A DNA stretch of 64,000 bases from Candidatus Aenigmatarchaeota archaeon. Lineage in GTDB: Archaea > Aenigmatarchaeota > Aenigmatarchaeia > CG10238-14 > SCSR01. Position 1 is the stretch's first letter. Each line of letters opens with the position of its first letter. Below, piece by piece: positions 3,067-40,376 of this stretch. Below the pieces are notes generated by a model. The model was given only the letters and a program-made list of their open reading frames with translations. It had not been told where the DNA came from and made no database searches. The DNA is taken from positions 3,245 through 67,244 of the forward strand of contig JAWBTW010000002.1 of NCBI GenBank assembly GCA_039000165.1. Direction: 5' to 3'. The position numbers and the translations under genes were made by a program.

Positions 3067-4339
3067 CTATTTTACTTTTTGTTAGTTCTTCAATTTTATC
3101 CAAAAAATTTTTCTTTACTACTTCTTTCTCATCCAACTCAGGAACTTTTTCTTTCAACCTAAGATAGATAGAAGAAGCTAAACTTTTAATTTTTTCTTCC
3201 TCAGTTGCGAGTTTAAGCTTCAATACATACTCGTCTAAACCAAAAAAGCTTTTAGAATAGATTGGAGAAAGGATTGAAAGCAGACTTTCTACATAATTGA
3301 GAAACTTTAATTTATTTCCAACCAGATCTTTCCCTTTTTGGATTTCTCTTTCTGTTTCACTTAAACTTAAGCACAGTTTAATAATTTCCATCTCATTTTC
3401 TGGTACCCTTAAGAAATAAGTTATATTCAATAAATCCCATCTTTTAAGGAAGTGTGCAACTATCTTCATGCCCTCGTATCCATTGTAATTCTCTCCCTTT
3501 CTTCTAACCTCAGGTAAACAAACAAAAAATTCATCAAAAACTTCAGGTTTATCAGAAACAAAAATTCTAAAACCAGCTTGTGAGGAAGGAGCTGAATCGC
3601 TTCTTGGATTATCTGTCATAAAAATTGAAAACTTACTTTTGCACCTATAAAAATTTAAAAATTTTTCAAAAGCTTCGGCTTTCTTAAAGTTAAGTCTTGG
3701 TAAAATTATTCCTGTAAACCTATTGTTCTTGTCAAAATTGTAAACAGAACCGAAACAATTTTCTTTTAAAATTCCCAACCTTTCAGCTAAGTATCTCACA
3801 GCTTCTAAGTAAGCTCCAGAGTTAAGTCCTACAGAATAACCTAAGTCTTTGATTTCATTCAAACCTTCAAAAGAATAAGGAATTTTTTCAAATTCTTTTG
3901 CAGCATTTTTTGCAGCCTCGTTCAAATCTTCTTTTTTTAAGTTAAGCTCAGCTAACCTTTTGCCGAATTTTTTGACTAACTTTTTAATGTCTAATTCGCT
4001 TACGTTTAAAAAAGAAGAAACTTTGCCGATTTGACCCATGAGCTCTTTCAATTCGTTTATTTCTTTGCTTTGAAGTGGTAAGCCTTCCAACCATAACGTT
4101 GAAAGATTTTTTGAACCTTCTGGGTTAAGTGTATCATCAACGTCAAACATTATTGCTTTTAAAGAGTTTGAAAAAGTCCCACCCCAACTCTTTTCAATAA
4201 AAAATACAGAACTTAAACTTGGGTCAAAAAATAAGTCTTTCTCAAGATAAAGCTCGCTTAAGACTTTTTTATAATTTTCTCTTTCATTAAAACTTGAAAG
4301 GCTCTGCATTTTTCCACAAACTTTTGAGGTAAACATCAA
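3035..4339 (-). CDS. hypothetical protein with N-terminal HAD-like DxDxT motif
   Basis: IMFDVDDTLNP matches HAD motif I (hhhDxDxT). The rest is unassigned. The start may be an internal Met, since the first 50 nt overlap the TrmB gene. Confidence 0.35.
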   Translation of the reverse strand: MMFTSKVCGKMQSLSSFNERENYKKVLSELYLEKDLFFDPSLSSVFFIEKSWGGTFSNSLKAIMFDVDDTLNPEGSKNLSTLWLEGLPLQSKEINELKELMGQIGKVSSFLNVSELDIKKLVKKFGKRLAELNLKKEDLNEAAKNAAKEFEKIPYSFEGLNEIKDLGYSVGLNSGAYLEAVRYLAERLGILKENCFGSVYNFDKNNRFTGIILPRLNFKKAEAFEKFLNFYRCKSKFSIFMTDNPRSDSAPSSQAGFRIFVSDKPEVFDEFFVCLPEVRRKGENYNGYEGMKIVAHFLKRWDLLNITYFLRVPENEMEIIKLCLSLSETEREIQKGKDLVGNKLKFLNYVESLLSILSPIYSKSFFGLDEYVLKLKLATEEEKIKSLASSIYLRLKEKVPELDEKEVVKKNFLDKIEELTKSKIDGEFYGRPSK

Positions 4340-5235: not shown

Positions 5236-5538
5236 ATGAAAGTTGTCAAATTTTTGAAAGGCTACTTTAAACCTTTACCATTATTGGGTGGACTTCTTGG
5301 GTCTGGAGCACTTTACTGGGCAGGTTTTTGTGTGGGCTTTTTGAAAGAAAGTATACCAAACCTTTTACCAAGTTTGGCTAGCGGAAACTATCATCAACTT
5401 TTTTATAATTCCTTTCAAACTGCTTACAACTACGCTGCCCAACTTGGCTTGATTGGGGGAATAAGCGGAACCATTCTCACAAGACATGGTTTGGATTATC
5501 TTGGCAAAAAAATTTGGAAGAAAAAGGAGGTGAAATAA
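5236..5538 (+). CDS. small membrane protein (Gly-rich TM segments)
   Basis: ORF with hydrophobic glycine-zipper-like stretches. First of four co-directional small genes. Confidence 0.35.
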   Translation: MKVVKFLKGYFKPLPLLGGLLGSGALYWAGFCVGFLKESIPNLLPSLASGNYHQLFYNSFQTAYNYAAQLGLIGGISGTILTRHGLDYLGKKIWKKKEVK

Positions 5539-5843
5539 TGGGAATAATTGATTGGTTAAAAACTCCTGAAGGAGCTTTTGTTATTGCTTTGCCTATAGGC
5601 TACTTTGGAGGGAAATGGCTAGAAGGAAAAATTACAGATTACTTACAAAAAAACAGAGAAGTGATGAGAGAAAATATAAAACAGGCTATAAGAGAAGGTT
5701 TAAGTGGTAACCCTGAACCAACCTATTCTTTAATCACGAAAGAAATCCAAAAATTGGAAAACAAACTTGAAAACTTGATTTTAAGCCAATACCAAGAGCT
5801 TAGCTCAAGAATTTCGAAACTTGAAAAATATAAGAAAGAGTGA
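5514..5843 (+). CDS. small membrane/coiled-coil protein
   Basis: One TM segment followed by a coiled-coil-like tail. Overlaps its neighbours. Confidence 0.3.
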   Translation: MEEKGGEIMGIIDWLKTPEGAFVIALPIGYFGGKWLEGKITDYLQKNREVMRENIKQAIREGLSGNPEPTYSLITKEIQKLENKLENLILSQYQELSSRISKLEKYKKE

Positions 5844-6205
5844 TAAAATTGAACAAAAACTTGAAAGATCTAGAAAAAACTCTTTATGTTTTTTCTAGGA
5901 TAAAGGAAATTTTGCCCCAAGTAATAAAAGAATTTGAAGAAGATAAGACAAACTATAACCTAACAGAAGATTTCAAGAAAAACTTTGACTTTTCTTTAGA
6001 TGGCTTTATTGATTTTTTCTTCCCGAATAGCGAAGTTAGCAATTATCTGAAAGCTATGAAAAATGTAGAATGGCCTATTGCCATAAAATTCCTTTCACAA
6101 TTTCTTGAAGGCTATCTAGAAGCTAAGTACAGCAAAGAAAAAACTGTAGAAGAAGTTGTTAAGGACTTTATTGTTAGAAAATTTTTTGATTACATAAAGG
6201 GATAA
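5840..6205 (+). CDS. hypothetical protein
   Basis: Start overlaps the upstream stop by 4 nt. No motif. Confidence 0.3.
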   Translation: MIKLNKNLKDLEKTLYVFSRIKEILPQVIKEFEEDKTNYNLTEDFKKNFDFSLDGFIDFFFPNSEVSNYLKAMKNVEWPIAIKFLSQFLEGYLEAKYSKEKTVEEVVKDFIVRKFFDYIKG

Positions 6206-6207
6206 AG

Positions 6208-6600
6208 TTGAATTTCTTTAAAGAGCTAAGTTACGAAGAAGAATTAATTAAGTTAAGATTAACCGATAACCTAATCAAATACTATCAAGAAAACCCAGAA
6301 AAAAGAGAAGAAGTAGTTAACAAACTTAAATCGCTTAGGAATAAAATAGTGAGCGATGACGAGATTAGAAGCTTCTACAAAGAAAACTTTCTAGCATGGA
6401 TAGAAAAAAATATTAAACGCTTAGAAAACGATAAAAACTTAAGCCTTTTAGAGTTTGGCATTCCGTTCTTCACTTTTCTCCTCGGTTTTGAAACAAGAGA
6501 TAAGCTTGGGAATTTTCTCGAGAAGTATAACAGAGAAATTGCTGCAGATGTTGCTCAAACTATAAAGGAAGAATTAGGTAGAAAGTATGGACAAAGGTGA
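6208..6600 (+). CDS. hypothetical protein
   Basis: Co-directional small ORF. No motif. Confidence 0.3.
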   Translation: MNFFKELSYEEELIKLRLTDNLIKYYQENPEKREEVVNKLKSLRNKIVSDDEIRSFYKENFLAWIEKNIKRLENDKNLSLLEFGIPFFTFLLGFETRDKLGNFLEKYNREIAADVAQTIKEELGRKYGQR

Positions 6601-7051
6601 AAAGTTCGAAATCTTAATCGAAAAACTCTACAGAAAAATGGGCTATAAAGTTGAGAGAAGAAAAGTTTTAAGAGGAATGAGCGGAGCTTATCATGAAATT
6701 GACTTATACGCTTACAAAAATTTTTTGAGCAAAAAAATAGCAATAGAGTGCAAATGGAGAGAAAACTTAGAAGTTGGTAAAAAAGAACTTGCGAACTTTT
6801 TCTTAGTTTTACAAGACACAAAAATTAAAGAAGGGCATATGGTAACAAACTCTTTCTACTCTAAACAAGCAAAAGTTTTGGCAAAAAGTTATGGGATAAA
6901 ACTTATTGATGGGGGAATGCTGAAAAAACTCTTGAAGAAATATTCGCTAGATGCTGAGCTTCCCTTACAAGACTTTTCCTTCACAAAAATTTTAGAGAGT
7001 TTAATTTTTCCTGCGATTGATTTTCTTAACTACAACGGAATAATCTACTAA
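6587..7051 (+). CDS. Mrr-like restriction-endonuclease-fold (PD-(D/E)xK) domain protein
   Basis: YHEIDLYAY...IAIECKWRE matches the Mrr_cat D...(E/D)xK pattern. A paralogous domain occurs in gene 19361. Confidence 0.5.
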   Translation: MDKGEKFEILIEKLYRKMGYKVERRKVLRGMSGAYHEIDLYAYKNFLSKKIAIECKWRENLEVGKKELANFFLVLQDTKIKEGHMVTNSFYSKQAKVLAKSYGIKLIDGGMLKKLLKKYSLDAELPLQDFSFTKILESLIFPAIDFLNYNGIIY

Positions 7052-21124: not shown

Positions 21125-21496
21125 ATGGAATTAAAAAGCGAATTAGAAGGGGTGTTAAAGGAAATAAAAATGATAGAAGGAGTTAGAGGAGCAATAATAG
21201 CTAAAAATGATGGACTACTGATAGCTTCTTACCTTCCTTCTGGTCTTAACGCTAAGCTTCTAGCTGCTTTGGCTGCAGCAATAACAAAAAGCTCTTTCGT
21301 ATCGACAAAAGAACTTGGAATGGGAAGCTTTACTCATACAATAGTAAAAGCTTCTAACGGTTATTATGTGTGTTTCCCTGTTGATAGCGAGATGATTTTA
21401 GCATGTTTACTTGAAAAAGATGCTAACTTAGGGATGGTTTTGATAAAGATGGAAAAGAGTATAAAGGAAGTGGTGAATGTACTAAGAAGTATTTAA
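21125..21496 (+). CDS. Roadblock/LC7 domain protein
   Basis: GVRGAIIAKNDGLLIAS...AALAAAI is the typical Roadblock/LC7 pattern. 123 aa. Confidence 0.6.
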   Translation: MELKSELEGVLKEIKMIEGVRGAIIAKNDGLLIASYLPSGLNAKLLAALAAAITKSSFVSTKELGMGSFTHTIVKASNGYYVCFPVDSEMILACLLEKDANLGMVLIKMEKSIKEVVNVLRSI

Positions 21497-28888: not shown

Positions 28889-28974
28889 CGCCCGGGGCGG
28901 GATTTGAACCCGCAAGAGCCAAAAGGCTCCCTAGCTTAGCAGGCTAGTGCACTACCAGGTTGTGCGACCCGGGC
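28889..28974 (-). tRNA. tRNA-Ser (anticodon GCU)
   Basis: Reverse complement: acceptor GCCCGGG/CCCGGGC, anticodon loop CUGCUAA, long variable arm, T-arm GCGGG-UUCAAAU-CCCGC. Confidence 0.85.
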
Positions 28975-29096
28975 TTAAACGATATTTACCTAATTCAATT
29001 TTTAATTTTTTCACTGAAATTTAAATTTGTTTAAGCTTTTTAAAAATAAGAATCCTTATATTATTTTAAATACAAATTTTATAAGGAGGAATAAAA

Positions 29097-29399
29097 ATGC
29101 CTATAACAGTTAAAGATATTCAAGAGATGTTTGGAAAGGATGTTTTCACAGGAAAGGGTTTTTATTGTGGAAAAGTTTCAGACGTTGAGCTTGACCTTTC
29201 AAGGTTCAAGATTAGAGCTTTAGTAATAGAAGCTGCAAAAGAATCTTTTCTTGCTAAATTGGTTGGGAGTAAAAAAGGCTTAGTAGTTCCTTACAGTATG
29301 GTTCAAGCAGTTGGTGACATAGTAATTATCAAGCACATTCAGACACCAGAAGTTAGCGAAGAAGGAGAGATGGCCGAAACACAAACTGGAGCTGTATGA
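29097..29399 (+). CDS. PRC-barrel domain protein
   Basis: 100 aa with an archaeal PRC-barrel-like pattern (VSDVELDLSRFKIRALVIE...VPYSMVQAVGDIVIIKH). Preceded by a GGAGG RBS. Confidence 0.6.
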   Translation: MPITVKDIQEMFGKDVFTGKGFYCGKVSDVELDLSRFKIRALVIEAAKESFLAKLVGSKKGLVVPYSMVQAVGDIVIIKHIQTPEVSEEGEMAETQTGAV

Positions 29400-29662
29400 A
29401 CGAAGGAAAAAAACCACAAAGAACAAAGGATTTAATTTGGAGTAAAGCTGGAGATGTTTATCTCCTTCTTGATAAGGATACTAACGAAACTTATACTCTT
29501 GATCCAATAGCTTTTCTTGTTTGGATTCAGTGTGATGGAAAATCCGACATAGAGCAAATAGTTGACGTTTTCTCAGTAAACGGAAATAGAGATATAGTTA
29601 AGGCTGCTATTCTCGGGATTTTGGAAAAATTACAAAAATCTGGTTTAATCAAGTGGGTTTAA
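29396..29662 (+). CDS. PqqD-family (RiPP recognition element-like) protein
   Basis: 88 aa. YLLLDKDTNETYTLDPIAFLVWIQCDGKSDIEQIV...LQKSGLI matches the PqqD/RRE pattern. Start overlaps the PRC-barrel stop (ATGA). Confidence 0.6.
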   Translation: MNEGKKPQRTKDLIWSKAGDVYLLLDKDTNETYTLDPIAFLVWIQCDGKSDIEQIVDVFSVNGNRDIVKAAILGILEKLQKSGLIKWV

Positions 29663-29798
29663 AAAAAATAAAAAGAAAAAGGAAGAATCACCAAAACTCT
29701 TCTTCCTCTTCCTCATCCCAGTCGGCATCTTCTAATGGGTCTGGTATATCCTCGTCCATACCATCGCCCCTTTTTAAATGCACCAAAAAAGGTGCATT

Positions 29799-30947
29799 TT
29801 ATCTAATTATATCGATTCCCAATGTTTCGCTGACTTCCTTGACAACTGGTCTTTCGTAAGTTACTGGACCTAGAATGTAAGGTGATTTTACTCCTGTAAT
29901 TATTGCAATAACTTGAACCTTTCCTTCAAATTCTGGTAAAATTCTAGCTCCCCAGAAGACTTGGGCGCTTGGGTCTAAGTGTTGAGAAACAGTTTCTCCT
30001 ATTATGTTTACTTCTTCTAGCTTAAGATCTGGCCCACCTGTGATGTGAATCAAAGCTCCGGTTGCTCCTGTGTAATCAACTTCTAACAAAGGATTGAGCA
30101 AAGCTTTTGTTATAGCGTCTCTTGCTCTATCTGAGCTGTTACTTTCACCAACACCTATTGCAGCAACTCCTCCTGTGTGCATTACTGCTTTAACGTCTGC
30201 GTAATCTAAGTTCACTAGGCTTGGTAAAGTAATGGTTTCGGTTATTCCTTTGACCATGCTTGCTATTAGTTCATCAGCTACCGCAAAAGCTTGCTGTATG
30301 GATAAGTTACCAGCATACTTCAAAAGTTTATCGTTCTCTATTACTATAACGGTATCTGTAACTTGTCTAAGAGCAGCCAAGCCTTGCTCTGCTTTTGAAA
30401 TTCTTGCCCCTTCTAGCTTGAAAGGCATAGTAACTACTGCTATAACAATTGCCCCCATACTTTTAGCAATCTCACAAACTACTGGTATACTTCCTGTACC
30501 TGTTCCTTTTCCCAATCCTGCTATGGCAAAAACTAGGTCGGCTCCTTCCAAAGCTTCTTTAATTTCGTTTCTTGATTCTTCTGCACACTTTCTTCCAATT
30601 TCTGGATAACCACCACAACCTAAACCTTTTGTTAACTCCTTTCCTATCAAAATTTTCTTGTCAGCTTTTCCTACTGCTAAATGTTTTGCGTCTGAATTTA
30701 AAGAAACAGTTGTTGCTCCTTCTATTCCCATTTCTGTTAATCTTGTCACAGCATTTTGACCTGCTCCTCCGCATCCTACTACAACAATTTTCGCTTTCTT
30801 AACTGAAAATCCAAACTCTTGCTCTGCTAGTTTATAATAATCAACACTAGAAAACGTTGCTCCTGAAGTTGATTCTAACCTAAACCTGGTTTGAGGAGAA
30901 TCCTCGCCGAATGTTCTCTTCAAAGCGCTTTGAACAATACTTTCCAT
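29799..30947 (-). CDS. ftsZ: cell division GTPase FtsZ (tubulin/FtsZ family)
   Basis: N-terminal GTP-binding motif VVVGCGGAGQNAV, tubulin signature AGLGKGTGTGS, T7 loop region. About 50-aa N-terminal extension. Confidence 0.85.
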   Translation of the reverse strand: MESIVQSALKRTFGEDSPQTRFRLESTSGATFSSVDYYKLAEQEFGFSVKKAKIVVVGCGGAGQNAVTRLTEMGIEGATTVSLNSDAKHLAVGKADKKILIGKELTKGLGCGGYPEIGRKCAEESRNEIKEALEGADLVFAIAGLGKGTGTGSIPVVCEIAKSMGAIVIAVVTMPFKLEGARISKAEQGLAALRQVTDTVIVIENDKLLKYAGNLSIQQAFAVADELIASMVKGITETITLPSLVNLDYADVKAVMHTGGVAAIGVGESNSSDRARDAITKALLNPLLEVDYTGATGALIHITGGPDLKLEEVNIIGETVSQHLDPSAQVFWGARILPEFEGKVQVIAIITGVKSPYILGPVTYERPVVKEVSETLGIDIIR

Positions 30948-31114: not shown

Positions 31115-31404
31115 AAAATTCTTTTATTCTAAGTTATTTAAATTGATTATTGTAGAATTTTCTATATTTTTTTGTAACTATTTTTGTTAAACTTTTATGT
31201 TAAGCAAAAATTTTTTTGAAAAAATTTCCCACATAAGTTTAAAGATTTTTGAGGAGGAAAATCTAAAAAAGGTGAGAAGGTTGGGCAACCGTCAAAACTT
31301 TGAAGCAAGAGGATGAAGATTTCTTTAGTTTTATCGCTATTCTTGACGATCGCGGAAGAATTGATGCAATTTGTTTGCGAAGAAGTGAAAAAATGCAAGA
31401 AAGA

Positions 31405-31452
31405 ACTTAAAATTTTTGGGAGGGAAAGGGGTTCAAATCTCCCCCAGAGCGT
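31405..31452 (+). other. orphan tRNA 3'-half-like element (T-arm plus acceptor 3' strand)
   Basis: GGGAG..AGGGGUUCAAAUCUCCCCCAGAGCG has a canonical T-loop with flanking stem and acceptor strand. No complementary 5' acceptor, D-arm or anticodon arm in cis. Confidence 0.3.
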
Positions 31453-32826: not shown

Positions 32827-32910
32827 GGGCTCGTCCGGTAACCTGGATAGCCGACTGCGCTTCGGTTTTGAGGAAACGCAGTAGTGAGGGTTCAAATCCC
32901 TCCGAGCCCA
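32827..32910 (+). tRNA. tRNA-Arg (anticodon UCG) with a 10-nt intron at 37/38
   Basis: Acceptor GGGCUCG/CGAGCCC, T-arm GAGGG-UUCAAAU-CCCUC, anticodon stem CUGCG/CGCAG enclosing 17 nt. Exon CUUC pairs with intron GAGG, leaving an AAA bulge and a 6-nt loop (BHL). The intron is at 32866-32875. Confidence 0.75.
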
Positions 32911-33755
32911 CTTTTTATTCTTTCTTTCAACCTGCAAAAGCTACATATTCTCATGCTTGTTGGTTCTTTGCAGATTTCACACTCTTTTAAATCAAAAGAT
33001 AAGTTATTCTGTAAAATTCCTGCAACTGAAATTACGCTTTGTAAAAAGTTTTCTCTAAAGTTTGGTTGCCAGCTTGAAATTTCTTTAATAAGCTTGTACC
33101 ATTTTTCTCTTTTTCTGTCCATTTTTTGTTTAAGGATTACGTAAGGACAAACATCTTCTTCAACAAAAGGGATTCCTTCTTTCTTGCAAAAATCTTTTGT
33201 TTCTTCTTGGCTAACAAAGAACAAGGGTCTTATTCTAGTTAATTGCTTATTTCTGCCTTCAAGCTTAGGTAAAAACTTTGAAATCCAAAAGATGTTTTTG
33301 CTTAGCATGTTTTTAAAGAAGAAAACCAAAAAATCATCTGCATTATGTCCTGTACAAAGCTTTGTTGCTCCTTCCTCTCTTGGAATTTTGTTCATAAGAT
33401 ATCTTTTAACCATTCCGCAAAAGCTACAAATTGGTCTTTCTAAATTTGTTAATTTTTCGAAATCTATCCCAAAATTTTTAACATTATAAACCTTGAGCTT
33501 AACCTTGCATATGCTTGCTTGTTTTTTCACTATGTTAAGAACAGTTTTTGGTATAAAATCGCCAAGAATTAAATGAAAAGCGTTTATCTCACAATCTATT
33601 TTATTTTCTTTTACGTATTTTGAAAGCAAAAAGCAAACAGTAGCGCTGTCTTTTCCTCCGCTTAAAGCAACAAAAATTTTGTCTTTGTTCTCGATTAGCT
33701 TGTATTTTGAAATTGTTCTGAAAACCTTTTTCTCTATTTCAAGCATAACTCTCAT
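32892..33755 (-). CDS. PP-loop ATPase, tRNA thiolation family (TtcA/TtuA/NcsA-like)
   Basis: PP-loop SGGKDS, plus N- and C-terminal Cys pairs (CSFCG...; CEICKEP...CSFC). Its 3' end overlaps the tRNA-Arg 3' end on the opposite strand. Confidence 0.65.
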   Translation of the reverse strand: MRVMLEIEKKVFRTISKYKLIENKDKIFVALSGGKDSATVCFLLSKYVKENKIDCEINAFHLILGDFIPKTVLNIVKKQASICKVKLKVYNVKNFGIDFEKLTNLERPICSFCGMVKRYLMNKIPREEGATKLCTGHNADDFLVFFFKNMLSKNIFWISKFLPKLEGRNKQLTRIRPLFFVSQEETKDFCKKEGIPFVEEDVCPYVILKQKMDRKREKWYKLIKEISSWQPNFRENFLQSVISVAGILQNNLSFDLKECEICKEPTSMRICSFCRLKERIKSGLGGI

Positions 33756-34691: not shown

Positions 34692-34725
34692 CAAAAATAA
34701 GATTAACAGTAAGAATTAACTACAC

Positions 34726-35709
34726 TTAGCTACTAAAACTTCTCCAGTATTTTATGGCTATGCATTCGTTTAGTTCAAAATTTTTAAAAACTTCAAAAGT
34801 TTCCAATAGTTTTCTTAGTGGTGTTTTTAAACAATTTCCAACAACCAACTTTGGAAAAAAACCGCAAGGACTAACATCCCCATTCGCATAAATTGAAAAA
34901 ACACCATCGCCCATAGGACATTTGAGACGATAAAACTGATCCATAACATTTCCGAACCTTAATTTTTTTAACTTACGATAAATCCATCTTTCTTCTTTAG
35001 GGCTAAGCATTATCTCCAAACTTTCTTTGTTTTCTGGAATAAACCTCATTATTTTCCAAGCGCTTGGTTTAATTTTTTTCTTTATAAACTTAGCAAGTTT
35101 AGGAATCTCTCTGTAATTTAACTTTGTAGGGACGGTTATTATTCTTACTCTTATTCCATTTTCTTTAAGTATTTTAATACTTTCCAAGACCCTATCCCAA
35201 ATATCAGCATTTCTCATCAAGTTATGTCCTTTTTTCATCCCATCTAAACTGACACTTACATAACTTACACAATTTTTTAGTTGGTTTGCCAACTCTTCGG
35301 TCATAGTAGTTCCGTTAGTTGTTATGGAACATGAAGCTCTTTTATAAGTGTATTTCAGAATTTTAATCAAATCTTTTCTTAAAGTTGGTTCACCACCACC
35401 AAAGCTTATGTGTAGTACACCAACCCCAAATACTTGATTAAGGATTTTTGAGAAAGAATTGAAAGGTAGTTCAAAAGGTCTATACCTGTTATGACAATGT
35501 CTGCATTTTAAGTTACACTTATAAGTTAAATCGATAAAAGCTTCGAAAAAATTATTTTCAAATTTAGGCTTAATTATCTTCACTCTGTTTGTACGAAGAA
35601 ATTTAATTAGTTGGTTTTTGTTCAAAAGAAAAAATTCAAAACAGGAGGGGTCATAGCCAATTCCCCCTTCCTTTAAAAGTTTTACCCATTTAGTTTCCCC
35701 ATTTTTCAA
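34726..35709 (-). CDS. radical SAM protein with C-terminal SPASM/twitch-like Cys cluster
   Basis: CNLKCRHC (Cx3Cx2C) with GGGEP. C-terminal CPMGDG...SPCGF...GNC auxiliary cluster pattern. About 55-aa N-terminal extension. Confidence 0.75.
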   Translation of the reverse strand: MKNGETKWVKLLKEGGIGYDPSCFEFFLLNKNQLIKFLRTNRVKIIKPKFENNFFEAFIDLTYKCNLKCRHCHNRYRPFELPFNSFSKILNQVFGVGVLHISFGGGEPTLRKDLIKILKYTYKRASCSITTNGTTMTEELANQLKNCVSYVSVSLDGMKKGHNLMRNADIWDRVLESIKILKENGIRVRIITVPTKLNYREIPKLAKFIKKKIKPSAWKIMRFIPENKESLEIMLSPKEERWIYRKLKKLRFGNVMDQFYRLKCPMGDGVFSIYANGDVSPCGFFPKLVVGNCLKTPLRKLLETFEVFKNFELNECIAIKYWRSFSS

Positions 35710-35768
35710 CAGCTTTCACCTTGCTCTTTTTCTCTTTGAAAACAAGCGGCGAACAACATCTCTTCATT

Positions 35769-36404
35769 TTACCTCACCTGTTTTTTAAATTTTTTAAGGT
35801 CATCGAAAGTATCTATCTCCAATATTGTATGGGGAGTATAAAAATAAAAAATGCTATAGTTATGCGCTAGCAACAGGATTGCTAAGTCTGAATATTCAAA
35901 ATTATCTTCTATTTTCTCTTCTATTTTTTTCAAAATACTTACGTTCCATATGGAAAGTGAAGTCGTAGGTTTAATATATTTCAGAGAACTTACTTTAACA
36001 GTTCTTCTCCTACCTTTTGCATGAAACAAGCAAGCTGGCTGGAGCTTTTTGTAAACTTTTATGCTTTCTCTTATTACCTCACTTGGTTGGATTATGTCAG
36101 AAGGTAGGACTAAAACATCTTTCCCAGACTTAATATTTATTATTTCAAGCATATTACGAACACAATAATCAGAACTTCCTACAAAATAGTTTATCTTTTT
36201 TTGTTGTAAGTAGGGAATGAAAGCTTCATGCCTATATCTGAGGCAAACTACTATGTTTGATTTTTTAATTCCACTTTCTAACAAACTATCAAGAGCATAA
36301 TCTATCAATTTTTTGTTGTTGATTTCAATTAAAGGCTTTGGTATTTCATAAGTAAGTGGTCTTAATCTTTCCCCTTTTCCACCTGCCATTAAAATTGCCA
36401 GCAT
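35769..36404 (-). CDS. nucleotidyltransferase (sugar-phosphate NTP-transferase / MobA-like fold)
   Basis: N-terminal LAILMAGGKGERLRPLT signature. Confidence 0.55.
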   Translation of the reverse strand: MLAILMAGGKGERLRPLTYEIPKPLIEINNKKLIDYALDSLLESGIKKSNIVVCLRYRHEAFIPYLQQKKINYFVGSSDYCVRNMLEIINIKSGKDVLVLPSDIIQPSEVIRESIKVYKKLQPACLFHAKGRRRTVKVSSLKYIKPTTSLSIWNVSILKKIEEKIEDNFEYSDLAILLLAHNYSIFYFYTPHTILEIDTFDDLKKFKKQVR

Positions 36405-36418
36405 AACTTATCTTAACC

Positions 36419-36889
36419 CTATTTATACACTACTATTTTTGTTGTCTCAAAAGCATCTTCCACAACTTTTTTGGGTTCTATTCCCCATTCTTTAATTAAG
36501 TCATGCGTTATATAGATGAAATATCCTTTATCCATTAGGTTTAGAGCTATAGTTACAAGATAGTAGGGATTAAAATTCACCAAAATTGCCTTGTTTAAAA
36601 GTTCTCCTGCGTATTCAGTAGGAAAGATTATTAGTTTCAACCTGTGCTTTGAGTATGGTGCAGGGATTTCAATTTCTTTTATGAAATCATCTATTGCCTT
36701 CTTCAATTTTTTACCTTCAAACACATCGATATAAATCTTAGCAACGTTTACTCTAAACCAATAGCCTTTCCATTCAGCATCAAAATGTGTCTTGCTTATA
36801 TCTTCGAACCTTATTCCTGGGAATTTTTTTCTTAAATTTTTTTTAACAAGATTTTTAATTAACATCTTCCCAATTAAAGTTAGATACAA
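36419..36889 (-). CDS. hypothetical protein
   Basis: ORF co-directional with the NTP-transferase. No motif. Confidence 0.3.
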   Translation of the reverse strand: MYLTLIGKMLIKNLVKKNLRKKFPGIRFEDISKTHFDAEWKGYWFRVNVAKIYIDVFEGKKLKKAIDDFIKEIEIPAPYSKHRLKLIIFPTEYAGELLNKAILVNFNPYYLVTIALNLMDKGYFIYITHDLIKEWGIEPKKVVEDAFETTKIVVYK

Positions 36890-36985
36890 AAAAAGATAAA
36901 AAATTTTCTTTTGATTTGAGAGTTAAACTTAAATCTCAATCTTTAAGTTAAATTATTTGTTTACCAATTTATTAGAGGTGAGAAA

Positions 36986-39330: not shown

Positions 39331-40040
39331 ACTCTTAGAACTTCTATCCCGTTTTCTCTTATAACAAAAGGGTGAATCAAAGTAGAATGCTTGCTTCTTC
39401 TCATCTTTCTTATGGTCAAAGTTCTTTGATACTCTTTTGCGATATAAACAAAATCAAGCTTAATTATAGTATCGACAACAAATTCTAGAAATTGCAACCT
39501 GCTTACTCCTGCTTCTGACTCTGGAACTTCTGAGATAAAAATTGTGGTCACACCTCTTTCTTTTAAAGCATCTACTAGCGAAACAACTTCAGAGCGTATC
39601 ATATATTTATCTTTAAACATCATCTCTATTGCTGAGATGGAATCTATAACAAGTCTTTTCGCCTTAATTTTATCCACAGCCTCAAGAATTTTTTGAACTA
39701 TTTGATAAAACCCCATTGAAAGAACTTCCTTTTTCTCCACAGGATGCCAAACCCTTTTTATTCTTAAAGGAAGCCATAAAAGCTTGTTCTTTTTTTCAAA
39801 AGGCTCTAAATCCCAGCCAAAAGTTTCTTCTATATCTTTTTTTATATCCTCGACTCTCTCCTCAAAAGTTACGTAGACTGCAGGCTCGTTTTTTAGCAAG
39901 CCATCGTACAAAAATTGAACTGAAAAAAGAGTTTTACCGCTTCCTGTTTTTCCACTAACCATTATAGAAGAAGAGCGAATAAAGCCTCCTCCCATTAGTT
40001 CGTCCAAACCTTTAATTCCTGAGGAAACTCTTTCTGCCAT
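39327..40040 (-). CDS. KaiC-like RecA-superfamily ATPase
   Basis: GIKGLDELMGGGFIRSSSIMVSGKTGSGKT Walker A plus a KaiC/RadB-like core. Single domain, 237 aa. Confidence 0.75.
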   Translation of the reverse strand: MAERVSSGIKGLDELMGGGFIRSSSIMVSGKTGSGKTLFSVQFLYDGLLKNEPAVYVTFEERVEDIKKDIEETFGWDLEPFEKKNKLLWLPLRIKRVWHPVEKKEVLSMGFYQIVQKILEAVDKIKAKRLVIDSISAIEMMFKDKYMIRSEVVSLVDALKERGVTTIFISEVPESEAGVSRLQFLEFVVDTIIKLDFVYIAKEYQRTLTIRKMRRSKHSTLIHPFVIRENGIEVLRV

Positions 40041-40118
40041 AATATTAATTTCTTTTTCCTTTCTCTTATTTTTAAACTAAAAGAAAAATTTATAAGTTGT
40101 TGGGCTAATAAAAATATA

Positions 40119-40376
40119 GGCGAGCTAGCCAGGTAGCTTCGGCTTTGCATCAAAGCAAAGCTGAGGAAGTTCCCTCCATCCCTTAAGGTGCTGCGCAAGC
40201 AGCAGGCTGAGAAGCCTCTGCCAGAATCAGAAACGAGACCTTTTAGCTTCGCTAACCATGATGCGAAAGCTGAGTTGGGGCTAAAAGGATGAAACGGTCT
40301 GGCAGGCCTGGGATGCAAGTTTGAAACGCTTAGACAAATGCTACCAAAACATAAGAGGGGCTATGGCTAGCACGCC
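40119..40376 (+). ncRNA. rnpB: candidate RNase P RNA (minimal form)
   Basis: GC-rich noncoding island. The 5'/3' ends pair (GGCGAGCUAGCC / GGCUAGCACGCC, P1), followed by a P2-like strand and a P3 hairpin GCUUUGC-AUCAAA-GCAAAGC. Then comes a CR-I-like GAGGAAGUUCCCUCCAU, a GNRA-capped hairpin UGCUGC-GCAA-GCAGCA, and a CR-V-like CAGAAnC region near the 3' side. Confidence 0.5.

Follow-up and report, generated by a model that had tools for sequence, protein, structure and literature searches.

A CdpB1-like PRC-barrel gene and an RRE-fold gene form a conserved operon with recurrent linkage to ftsZ in Aenigmatarchaeota

Introduction

What does a protein with the fold of a recognition element of peptides that are synthesized on ribosomes and modified after translation (RiPP recognition element, RRE) do in an operon with a CdpB-type PRC-barrel protein next to ftsZ? 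The question is raised by a 64-kb stretch of DNA from an archaeon of the Aenigmatarchaeota (DPANN; G+C content of the stretch 33%), which was analysed as a whole and is called the window here. In it, a gene for a 100-aa PRC-barrel protein overlaps a gene for an 88-aa PqqD-like protein, and both converge on ftsZ. In Euryarchaeota CdpB1 polymerises with CdpB2 to organise the FtsZ ring. It binds SepF as well as CdpB2 and helps to organise the Z ring.

An initial annotation, made from the sequence of the window, had regarded a stand-alone PqqD-like partner of a PRC-barrel protein as undescribed, and no paper combining "PqqD" with "PRC-barrel" was indeed found in the searchable literature. Neither an RRE-type partner nor an acidic microprotein is mentioned in recent papers on the divisome. 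Here, we report that the pair is a real, strongly constrained two-gene operon of Aenigmatarchaeota, that its PRC gene is recurrently linked to ftsZ and that the operon has no RiPP context. Based on this we tentatively propose a peptide-binding role for the partner and weigh it against the alternatives.

Results

Organisation and conservation of the operon

The open reading frames (ORFs) of the PRC protein and the PqqD-like protein overlap by the tetranucleotide ATGA at 29396-29399. The initial annotation had described the two genes as coupled in this way, and its coordinates agree with ours, as do the Pfam matches. The stop codon of the PqqD-like gene is 136 nt away from that of ftsZ. The elements of the locus are:

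29054-29069, + strand: TATA-like box, CCTTATATTATTTTAA, a putative archaeal promoter about 28-43 nt 5' of the PRC ATG; the block is kept in an upstream alignment of 15 loci
29084-29089, + strand: Shine-Dalgarno sequence AGGAGG of the PRC gene; GGAGG is found 7-9 nt 5' of the ATG in 15/15 aligned loci
29097-29399, + strand: CdpB1-like PRC-barrel gene, 100 aa, with a conserved 83-aa core and a variable acidic tail (Pfam PRC)
29388-29391, + strand: GGAG within the PRC gene, 4 nt 5' of the PqqD-like ATG, found by sequence inspection; a presumptive coupling signal for the PqqD-like gene
29396-29662, + strand: PqqD-like (RRE-fold) gene, 88 aa (Pfam PqqD, AlphaFold2, Foldseek)
29799-30947, - strand: ftsZ, 382 aa (Pfam Tubulin and FtsZ_C; TIGR00065, 411 bits), convergent with the pair

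Because of the ATGA overlap, the internal GGAG and the conserved TATA-like box and AGGAGG, we interpret the two genes as a single bicistronic operon that is self-contained.

The PqqD-like alignment was scanned against one genome per GTDB species, which gave 35 loci; together with three metagenome loci, 38 loci were available. A PRC gene lies directly upstream and on the same strand in all 38 of these PqqD-like-anchored loci first examined, and also in further loci. The junction between the two genes measures -4 to +5 nt in many loci and stays within about 25 nt in nearly all. The most divergent member of the PqqD-like family (P0244) is also preceded by a PRC gene. This pairing is far beyond chance. 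The initial annotation had made its proposal depend on conservation in related genomes, and such conservation was found in the 35 GTDB species as well as on metagenome contigs.

The ratio of nonsynonymous to synonymous substitution rates (dN/dS) is 0.02-0.13 for the PRC gene and lies between 0.01 and 0.09 for the PqqD-like gene. Compared to its counterpart in the nearest relative (L004), at a dS of about 1, the PqqD-like protein shows 98% identity, which among 11 neighbouring proteins is exceeded only by FtsZ (99%). Homologues of the PRC protein numbered 250; the named homologues of this protein and of the PqqD-like protein are all from Candidatus Aenigmatarchaeota, with one record labelled Micrarchaeota.

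The PRC protein

The PRC protein matches Pfam PF05239 over residues 8-79 with E = 7e-10 and 39.2 bits (curated cut-off 21.2), and the PqqD-like protein matches PF05402 over residues 22-85, the full length of the profile, with E = 8.7e-9 and 36.0 bits (curated cut-off 23.4). The domain check that had been suggested for both proteins in the initial annotation therefore came out above the curated Pfam cut-offs in both cases. The assignment to the CdpB type also held: the closest solved structure is CdpB1 of Archaeoglobus fulgidus (8onw_A; E = 4.6e-12, approximately 41% identity over 75 residues). Against 8qzo_A, domain 1 gave 46.7 bits and the CdpB2 half 3.0 bits, and no CdpB2 chain matched the PRC protein at E <= 1; which chain is CdpB1 and which CdpB2 was taken from the structure paper's account of the residues that were built. 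Judged by these comparisons, the protein is specifically CdpB1-like, closer to CdpB1 than to the paralogue CdpB2, and the first product of the operon can probably be regarded as an orthologue-grade relative of CdpB1.

Conservation is high in the core of 83 residues. The short, acidic tail varies and contains a loosely kept [LMI]-P-E-E-G-E motif. An AlphaFold2 model of the PRC monomer was poor (predicted local distance difference test, pLDDT, 56.9; residues 68-100 below 50) and was left unused. An obligate strand-swapped dimer may be the cause.

The PqqD-like protein

The AlphaFold2 model of the PqqD-like protein, calculated from an alignment of 27 sequences, has a pLDDT of 91.5 and a predicted template modelling score of 0.81. 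It contains strands at residues 14-18, 21-26 and 31-35 and helices at residues 37-45, 52-59 and 65-81, besides two short terminal strands. When the model was compared to the PDB with Foldseek, the top 20 matches were all RRE-type or related winged-helix domains. The best match is TbiB1 with its leader peptide (E = 1.4e-4, TM 0.68), and further top matches are a lasso-peptide B1 protein with leader, TruD/LynD, PqqD, CteB, ThcOx and the RRE of PbtF. The PqqD/RRE pattern that had been recognised in the 88-aa protein is thus borne out by the Pfam match, the confident model and its structural neighbours, and we take the protein, as modelled, to be firmly predicted as a true RRE fold.

The invariant residues fall into two groups. 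Helix 1 and the following CDG turn represent the general PqqD signature; a second block, F-[SA]-V-[ND]-G-N-R-D-I-[VI]-K-A-A-I, is specific for the family and extends from the loop between helices 2 and 3 (VNGNRD) to the start of helix 3. Mapping of the alignment onto the model revealed that the invariant residues include elements lining the canonical peptide cleft. The protein's isoelectric point (pI) of about 5.3 and its net charge of around -1.5 speak against binding of DNA; across the family, most proteins fall between acidic and neutral (pI about 5.3-6.4).

When 1.84 billion representative proteins were searched with a profile, only four clusters came out at E < 1e-10, followed by a sharp drop to generic PqqD proteins at E >= 7e-8. 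The PqqD-like family is therefore tight and lineage-specific. One of the next-best generic PqqD matches adjoins ABC transporters, and the others are on very short contigs.

Absence of a RiPP pathway

An ORF for a radical S-adenosylmethionine (rSAM) enzyme with a SPASM domain at 34726-35709, 5 kb from the pair, had been pointed out in the initial annotation, together with the lack of an evident precursor peptide; the link hinted at between this enzyme and the pair is not supported. The ORF is real (Pfam Radical_SAM and SPASM). It is part of a segment of 2.25 kb (34693-36944) that also encodes a nucleotidyltransferase and a 156-aa ORF of no assigned family. This segment is absent from the closest relative, L004, in which the flanks align at 83-91% nucleotide identity; it is a strain-specific indel. 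The rSAM-SPASM gene was found in none of the first 38 pair loci, and its product reaches no NCBIfam equivalog cut-off (best 96 bits vs 395). Being confined to this indel, absent from all related loci and non-syntenic in every relative, the gene was rejected as a link to a RiPP pathway.

In none of the four synteny types are genes for a precursor, maturase, protease or transporter conserved next to the pair, and no pqq genes were found in the window or in related loci. The PqqD-like protein itself scores far below the cut-offs for PqqD proper (TIGR03859; 18.2 bits, cut-off 46) and for ScmD (28 bits, cut-off 100).

Linkage to ftsZ

Linkage to ftsZ was counted in those species loci whose downstream flank is 2 kb or longer (n = 25), and ftsZ was scored as convergent when it was within 1.5 kb. 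By this measure ftsZ is convergent with the pair in 16 of the 25 species loci. The convergence described in the initial annotation is therefore true for the window and for these 16 loci, but it is not a fixed property, since the other nine have no ftsZ nearby. In L001, ftsZ is 4 kb from the pair and in another orientation, and on one 238 kb contig it is about 13 kb away.

A scan of metagenomes with FtsZ yielded 39 distinct loci with 2 kb or more of downstream sequence, which are distributed as follows:

8/39: PRC and PqqD-like genes, convergent with ftsZ
11/39: PRC gene alone convergent with ftsZ, with no intervening ORF of at least 50 aa and no weak PqqD similarity
1/39: PRC gene upstream of ftsZ
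19/39: neither PRC arrangement

PRC thus converges on ftsZ in 19 of these 39 ftsZ-anchored loci. Loci in which PRC is convergent with ftsZ and the micro-ORF described below, and in which no PqqD-like gene follows downstream, are L072, L076-L080, L087, L096, L097, L099-L102 and L110. In a neighbour-joining tree of FtsZ, which as the tree of one very conserved protein is only indicative, such PRC-only clades are interspersed with pair-bearing clades. This suggests that the partner gene was repeatedly lost or relocated. Of 524 genomes, Zhao et al. report just 1 with a PRC gene close to genes of the FtsZ system, and the recurrent PRC-ftsZ linkage seen here is therefore itself informative.

On its other side, the operon is bordered by a tRNA gene:

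28889-28974, - strand: tRNA-Ser(GCU), adjoining the PRC gene upstream and divergent from it

A tRNA gene is present at the equivalent position upstream of the PRC gene in L001, L006, L013 and L018.

An acidic micro-ORF behind ftsZ

The gap between the two stop codons contains two further elements:

29688-29759, - strand: acidic micro-ORF, MDEDIPDPLEDADWDEEEEEEFW, 23 aa, downstream of ftsZ and within the 136-nt gap; unannotated
29776-29799, - strand: hairpin AAAUGCACC-U6-GGUGCAUUU, which begins at the ftsZ stop codon and precedes the Shine-Dalgarno sequence of the micro-ORF (sequence inspection)

Of 81 distinct related loci, 71 have an equivalent of the micro-ORF behind ftsZ, compared to 0/81 in reverse-complement and 0/81 in shuffled controls. 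In the loci printed, the copies start with ATG or GTG, are preceded by a Shine-Dalgarno sequence of the GGAGG/GGGG type and share the motif [DE][DE]x[WYFP]-D-P-[LFM]; after it come a run of acidic residues and a C terminus that is hydrophobic or aromatic. The microprotein has a net charge of about -14.5, its length ranges from 18 to 40 aa across the family, and it has no match in Pfam. Close pairs of micro-ORFs differ by 78 synonymous and 76 nonsynonymous codon changes, which is more synonymous change than we would expect for non-coding sequence.

In L001, where ftsZ and the pair are apart, the micro-ORF accompanies ftsZ, and near the pair in aIF5A-type loci it was not found. Lineages in which the PRC gene lacks a PqqD-like neighbour at its locus also have the micro-ORF; one pair-bearing genome is without a canonical micro-ORF after ftsZ. 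Since it is conserved after ftsZ and tracks ftsZ rather than the pair, the micro-ORF can be considered to encode a candidate divisome microprotein, whose apparent link to the PqqD-like protein and the pair is positional only.

At L054 (about 3635-4055) there is no micro-ORF; its place is taken by an ORF of 140 aa, which has a related motif, MDENIQRNPFED, at its start and then a hydrophobic stretch that probably spans the membrane. L052 apparently has the same arrangement. The longer ORF of these two loci may be a membrane-anchored version of the short motif.

Relatives carry other hairpins and T-runs at the position of the ftsZ-stop hairpin. On the + strand, T-runs downstream of the PqqD-like gene lie only beyond the micro-ORF, so that transcription of the PRC and PqqD-like genes may continue across it in the antisense direction. 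A search of the window and five loci with Rfam gave nothing in the spacer between ftsZ and the micro-ORF.

A conserved element of 70-100 nt lies in this spacer in 26 of 85 related loci (L001, 11490-11590; also L006, L010, L013, L051, L058, L060, L061, L069, L090, L094 and L109). It has the invariant core CACUUC...CACACUCUGGAC...GAAGA and a long-range helix whose outer pairs vary between lineages; RNAalifold supports only eight pairs, with one compensatory change. No Rfam family matches the element. The window is without it and has a spacer of 39 nt at this place.

Other features of the window

Compared to L004 (9970-11036), the window lacks about 1 kb at 31362-31428. This segment encodes a paralogue of asparaginyl-tRNA synthetase with 36% identity to the enzyme of the window, and the paralogue is also present in L011 and L013. 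Further features are:

6587-7051, + strand: Mrr-type restriction endonuclease (4e-20); several small ORFs nearby (5236-6600) have no family assigned
21125-21496, + strand: Roadblock/LC7-domain protein (5e-14)
32827-32910, + strand: tRNA of 84 nt (Rfam, 46.6 bits), unreported by ARAGORN; overlaps the 3' end of a PP-loop ORF (32892-33755, - strand) by 19 nt
40120-40375, + strand: archaeal RNase P RNA (135.8 bits); the ORF at 39995-40318 (- strand), which lies mostly atop it, is probably spurious

Discussion

The locus is a variation on known kinds, in which a PRC barrel of the CdpB type has an orphan RRE as its partner. How could the two act together? We propose tentatively, with somewhat more doubt than confidence, that they form a complex in which the RRE subunit clamps a short peptide and thereby tunes or connects the CdpB1-type scaffold. 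The two proteins would be made in a fixed ratio, and the peptide would be bound in linear form as an extra strand in the canonical groove between strand 3 and helix 3. The free-standing RRE fold would have lost any connection to peptide-modifying enzymes and would act as a RiPP-independent adaptor or regulator on the division scaffold. Our first preference for the ligand would be the tail or a terminal segment of the PRC protein itself; in third place would come [WYF]-D-P-[LF], the motif in the acidic microprotein whose gene follows ftsZ. We infer complex formation, peptide binding and a role in division because the pair is conserved in every PqqD-anchored locus, with the genes overlapping or a few nucleotides apart in most, because the PqqD-like protein is constrained second only to FtsZ, and because the PRC protein combines affinity to CdpB1 with linkage to ftsZ. 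Moreover, the top structural matches of the partner are RREs solved with bound leader peptides, the invariant residues include elements of the cleft and conserved RiPP genes are missing nearby, all of which speaks for a peptide clamp outside a RiPP pathway.

Several observations weigh against this proposal. The nine species loci without a nearby ftsZ have the pair among translation genes (aIF5A, aIF2-alpha, ribosomal proteins). The interspersion of PRC-only lineages in the FtsZ tree implies that the PqqD-like partner is dispensable or relocatable. When lineages with the partner were compared to those lacking it, the PRC alignment columns that set them apart gave only a weak signal (residues 6, 11-12, 24, 46, 51 and 56), and fusions of PRC and PqqD domains were not found among the longer matches of the PqqD profile. 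Neither SepF nor CdpB2 or any other second PRC barrel was detected in the 64 kb of the window by a PRC hidden Markov model run over 77 ORFs and by Pfam searches of ten small ORFs.

The main rival is a housekeeping function outside division, such as one in translation or RNA processing, with the PqqD-like protein as chaperone or adaptor and the proximity to ftsZ as incidental synteny in a compact genome. PRC barrels are also found in RimM-type factors. In one clade the pair is convergent with aIF5A and a histone gene and flanked by aIF2-alpha, ribosomal protein S2, RtcB and archease, and in many loci a tRNA-Ser gene is directly upstream, all of which would fit such a function. Zhao et al. report, in addition, that PRC genes are often near genes of translation and RNA processing and propose other housekeeping roles. 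However, the PRC protein is specifically CdpB1-like, and the convergence of PRC and ftsZ recurs in many species, also without the PqqD-like gene, which is hard to attribute to drift alone. On balance we consider a housekeeping function unlikely, though it is the alternative to be taken most seriously. A regulator that binds DNA through its winged helix, and controls its own operon or ftsZ and the micro-ORF across the shared intergenic region, has only a slim chance of being correct. In its favour, the RRE fold belongs to the winged helix-turn-helix type, the gene lies right beside the 3' region of ftsZ and there is a weak match to the winged helix of TBPIP/Hop2 (E = 0.21). Yet most members are acidic to neutral, the significant structural neighbours are all peptide-binding RREs and none is a DNA-binding winged helix-turn-helix, and the site is formed by the 3' ends of convergent genes rather than by a promoter.

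The remaining alternatives concern the peptide. An RRE of a RiPP or PQQ-like pathway would present a precursor to the rSAM-SPASM enzyme or another maturase, and the RRE fold, the enzyme 5 kb away and the small peptide gene adjoining the PqqD-like gene would suit this. It is largely refuted by synteny, with the enzyme confined to the indel, its scores and those of the PqqD-like protein well below the respective cut-offs and no processing genes conserved beside the pair; moreover, the micro-ORF tracks ftsZ rather than the RRE gene. We give this pathway hardly any credence. A different proposal is that the RRE protein specifically binds the acidic microprotein and couples it to the CdpB1-like scaffold without a modifying enzyme. 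In window-type loci the micro-ORF and the PqqD-like gene are convergent and 25 nt apart, and the conserved N-terminal [WYF]-D-P-[LF] has an aromatic-Pro-Leu character that resembles the leader motifs bound by lasso B1 RREs, the top structural matches. Against a specific interaction of this kind stand the lineages that have the micro-ORF and no PqqD-like partner at the PRC locus, the absence of the micro-ORF near the pair when ftsZ is elsewhere, and the pair-bearing genome without a canonical micro-ORF after ftsZ, and we hold it to be rather improbable. It is tempting to extend our own proposal of a complex with a peptide clamp and to speculate that the RRE left natural-product biosynthesis and became a core, constrained FtsZ-associated subunit that links the CdpB1-like scaffold to a short motif. 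This extension is quite doubtful, if a little less so than the specific binding of the microprotein. Its most striking version would have as ligand the acidic microprotein, with a tubulin-tail-like acidic end finishing in an aromatic residue.

Like CdpB1 from Haloferax volcanii and A. fulgidus (PDB 8ONW, 8QZO), the PRC protein of the window is a single PRC barrel of about 90-100 aa with a short acidic tail, and in many species it is encoded next to ftsZ. It differs in that its operon partner is an RRE-fold protein and not a second PRC barrel, and that no gene for CdpB2 or SepF was found in the window. The partner, in turn, resembles discrete RREs such as PqqD and the lasso B1 proteins TbiB1/TfuB1 in its three strands and three helices, its length of about 85-90 aa, its free-standing nature and a PF05402 score above the cut-off. 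Unlike these, it has no conserved gene for a precursor, maturase, protease or transporter nearby, and it is found in a housekeeping context and a reduced genome. It also has short additional strands at either terminus, and the loop F-[SA]-V-[ND]-G-N-R-D is invariant in, and specific for, its family. A small PRC barrel linked to ftsZ/sepF is likewise known from Firmicutes, where YlmC/YmxH is encoded in the ylm operon with sepF, downstream of ftsZ; homologues of the PRC protein carry the JGI name "sporulation protein YlmC with PRC-barrel domain", and the CdpB structure paper predicts that YlmC forms filaments like CdpB. YlmC is a bacterial family, however, and its model TIGR02888 gives only 23 bits for the window PRC protein (cut-off 44.2). 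To our knowledge, no RRE partner of YlmC is known. The micro-ORF may be compared to the bacterial FtsZ-associated peptides MciZ and SidA, which are also very short and encoded with division genes, but it has no sequence similarity to them and no Pfam family, is extremely acidic and is archaeal.

The FtsZ divisome of archaea is still being catalogued (CdpA, CdpB1-3, CdpC; 2023-2026), almost entirely in haloarchaea. The locus described here provides a second, much broader case of a CdpB-type gene tied genomically to ftsZ, in DPANN archaea. With a lineage-specific partner whose peptide-binding fold is well understood, it becomes directly testable what CdpB1 connects to. ORFs of less than 30 aa are rarely called in public sets, and the candidate microprotein beside ftsZ escapes standard gene callers. 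If true, the proposal would give a clean case of an RRE under strong purifying selection without a biosynthetic pathway, with a bearing on genome-mining tools that treat PqqD-like genes as RiPP markers. Next to ftsZ in Aenigmatarchaeota, a module for peptide binding may have been taken over for a housekeeping task.

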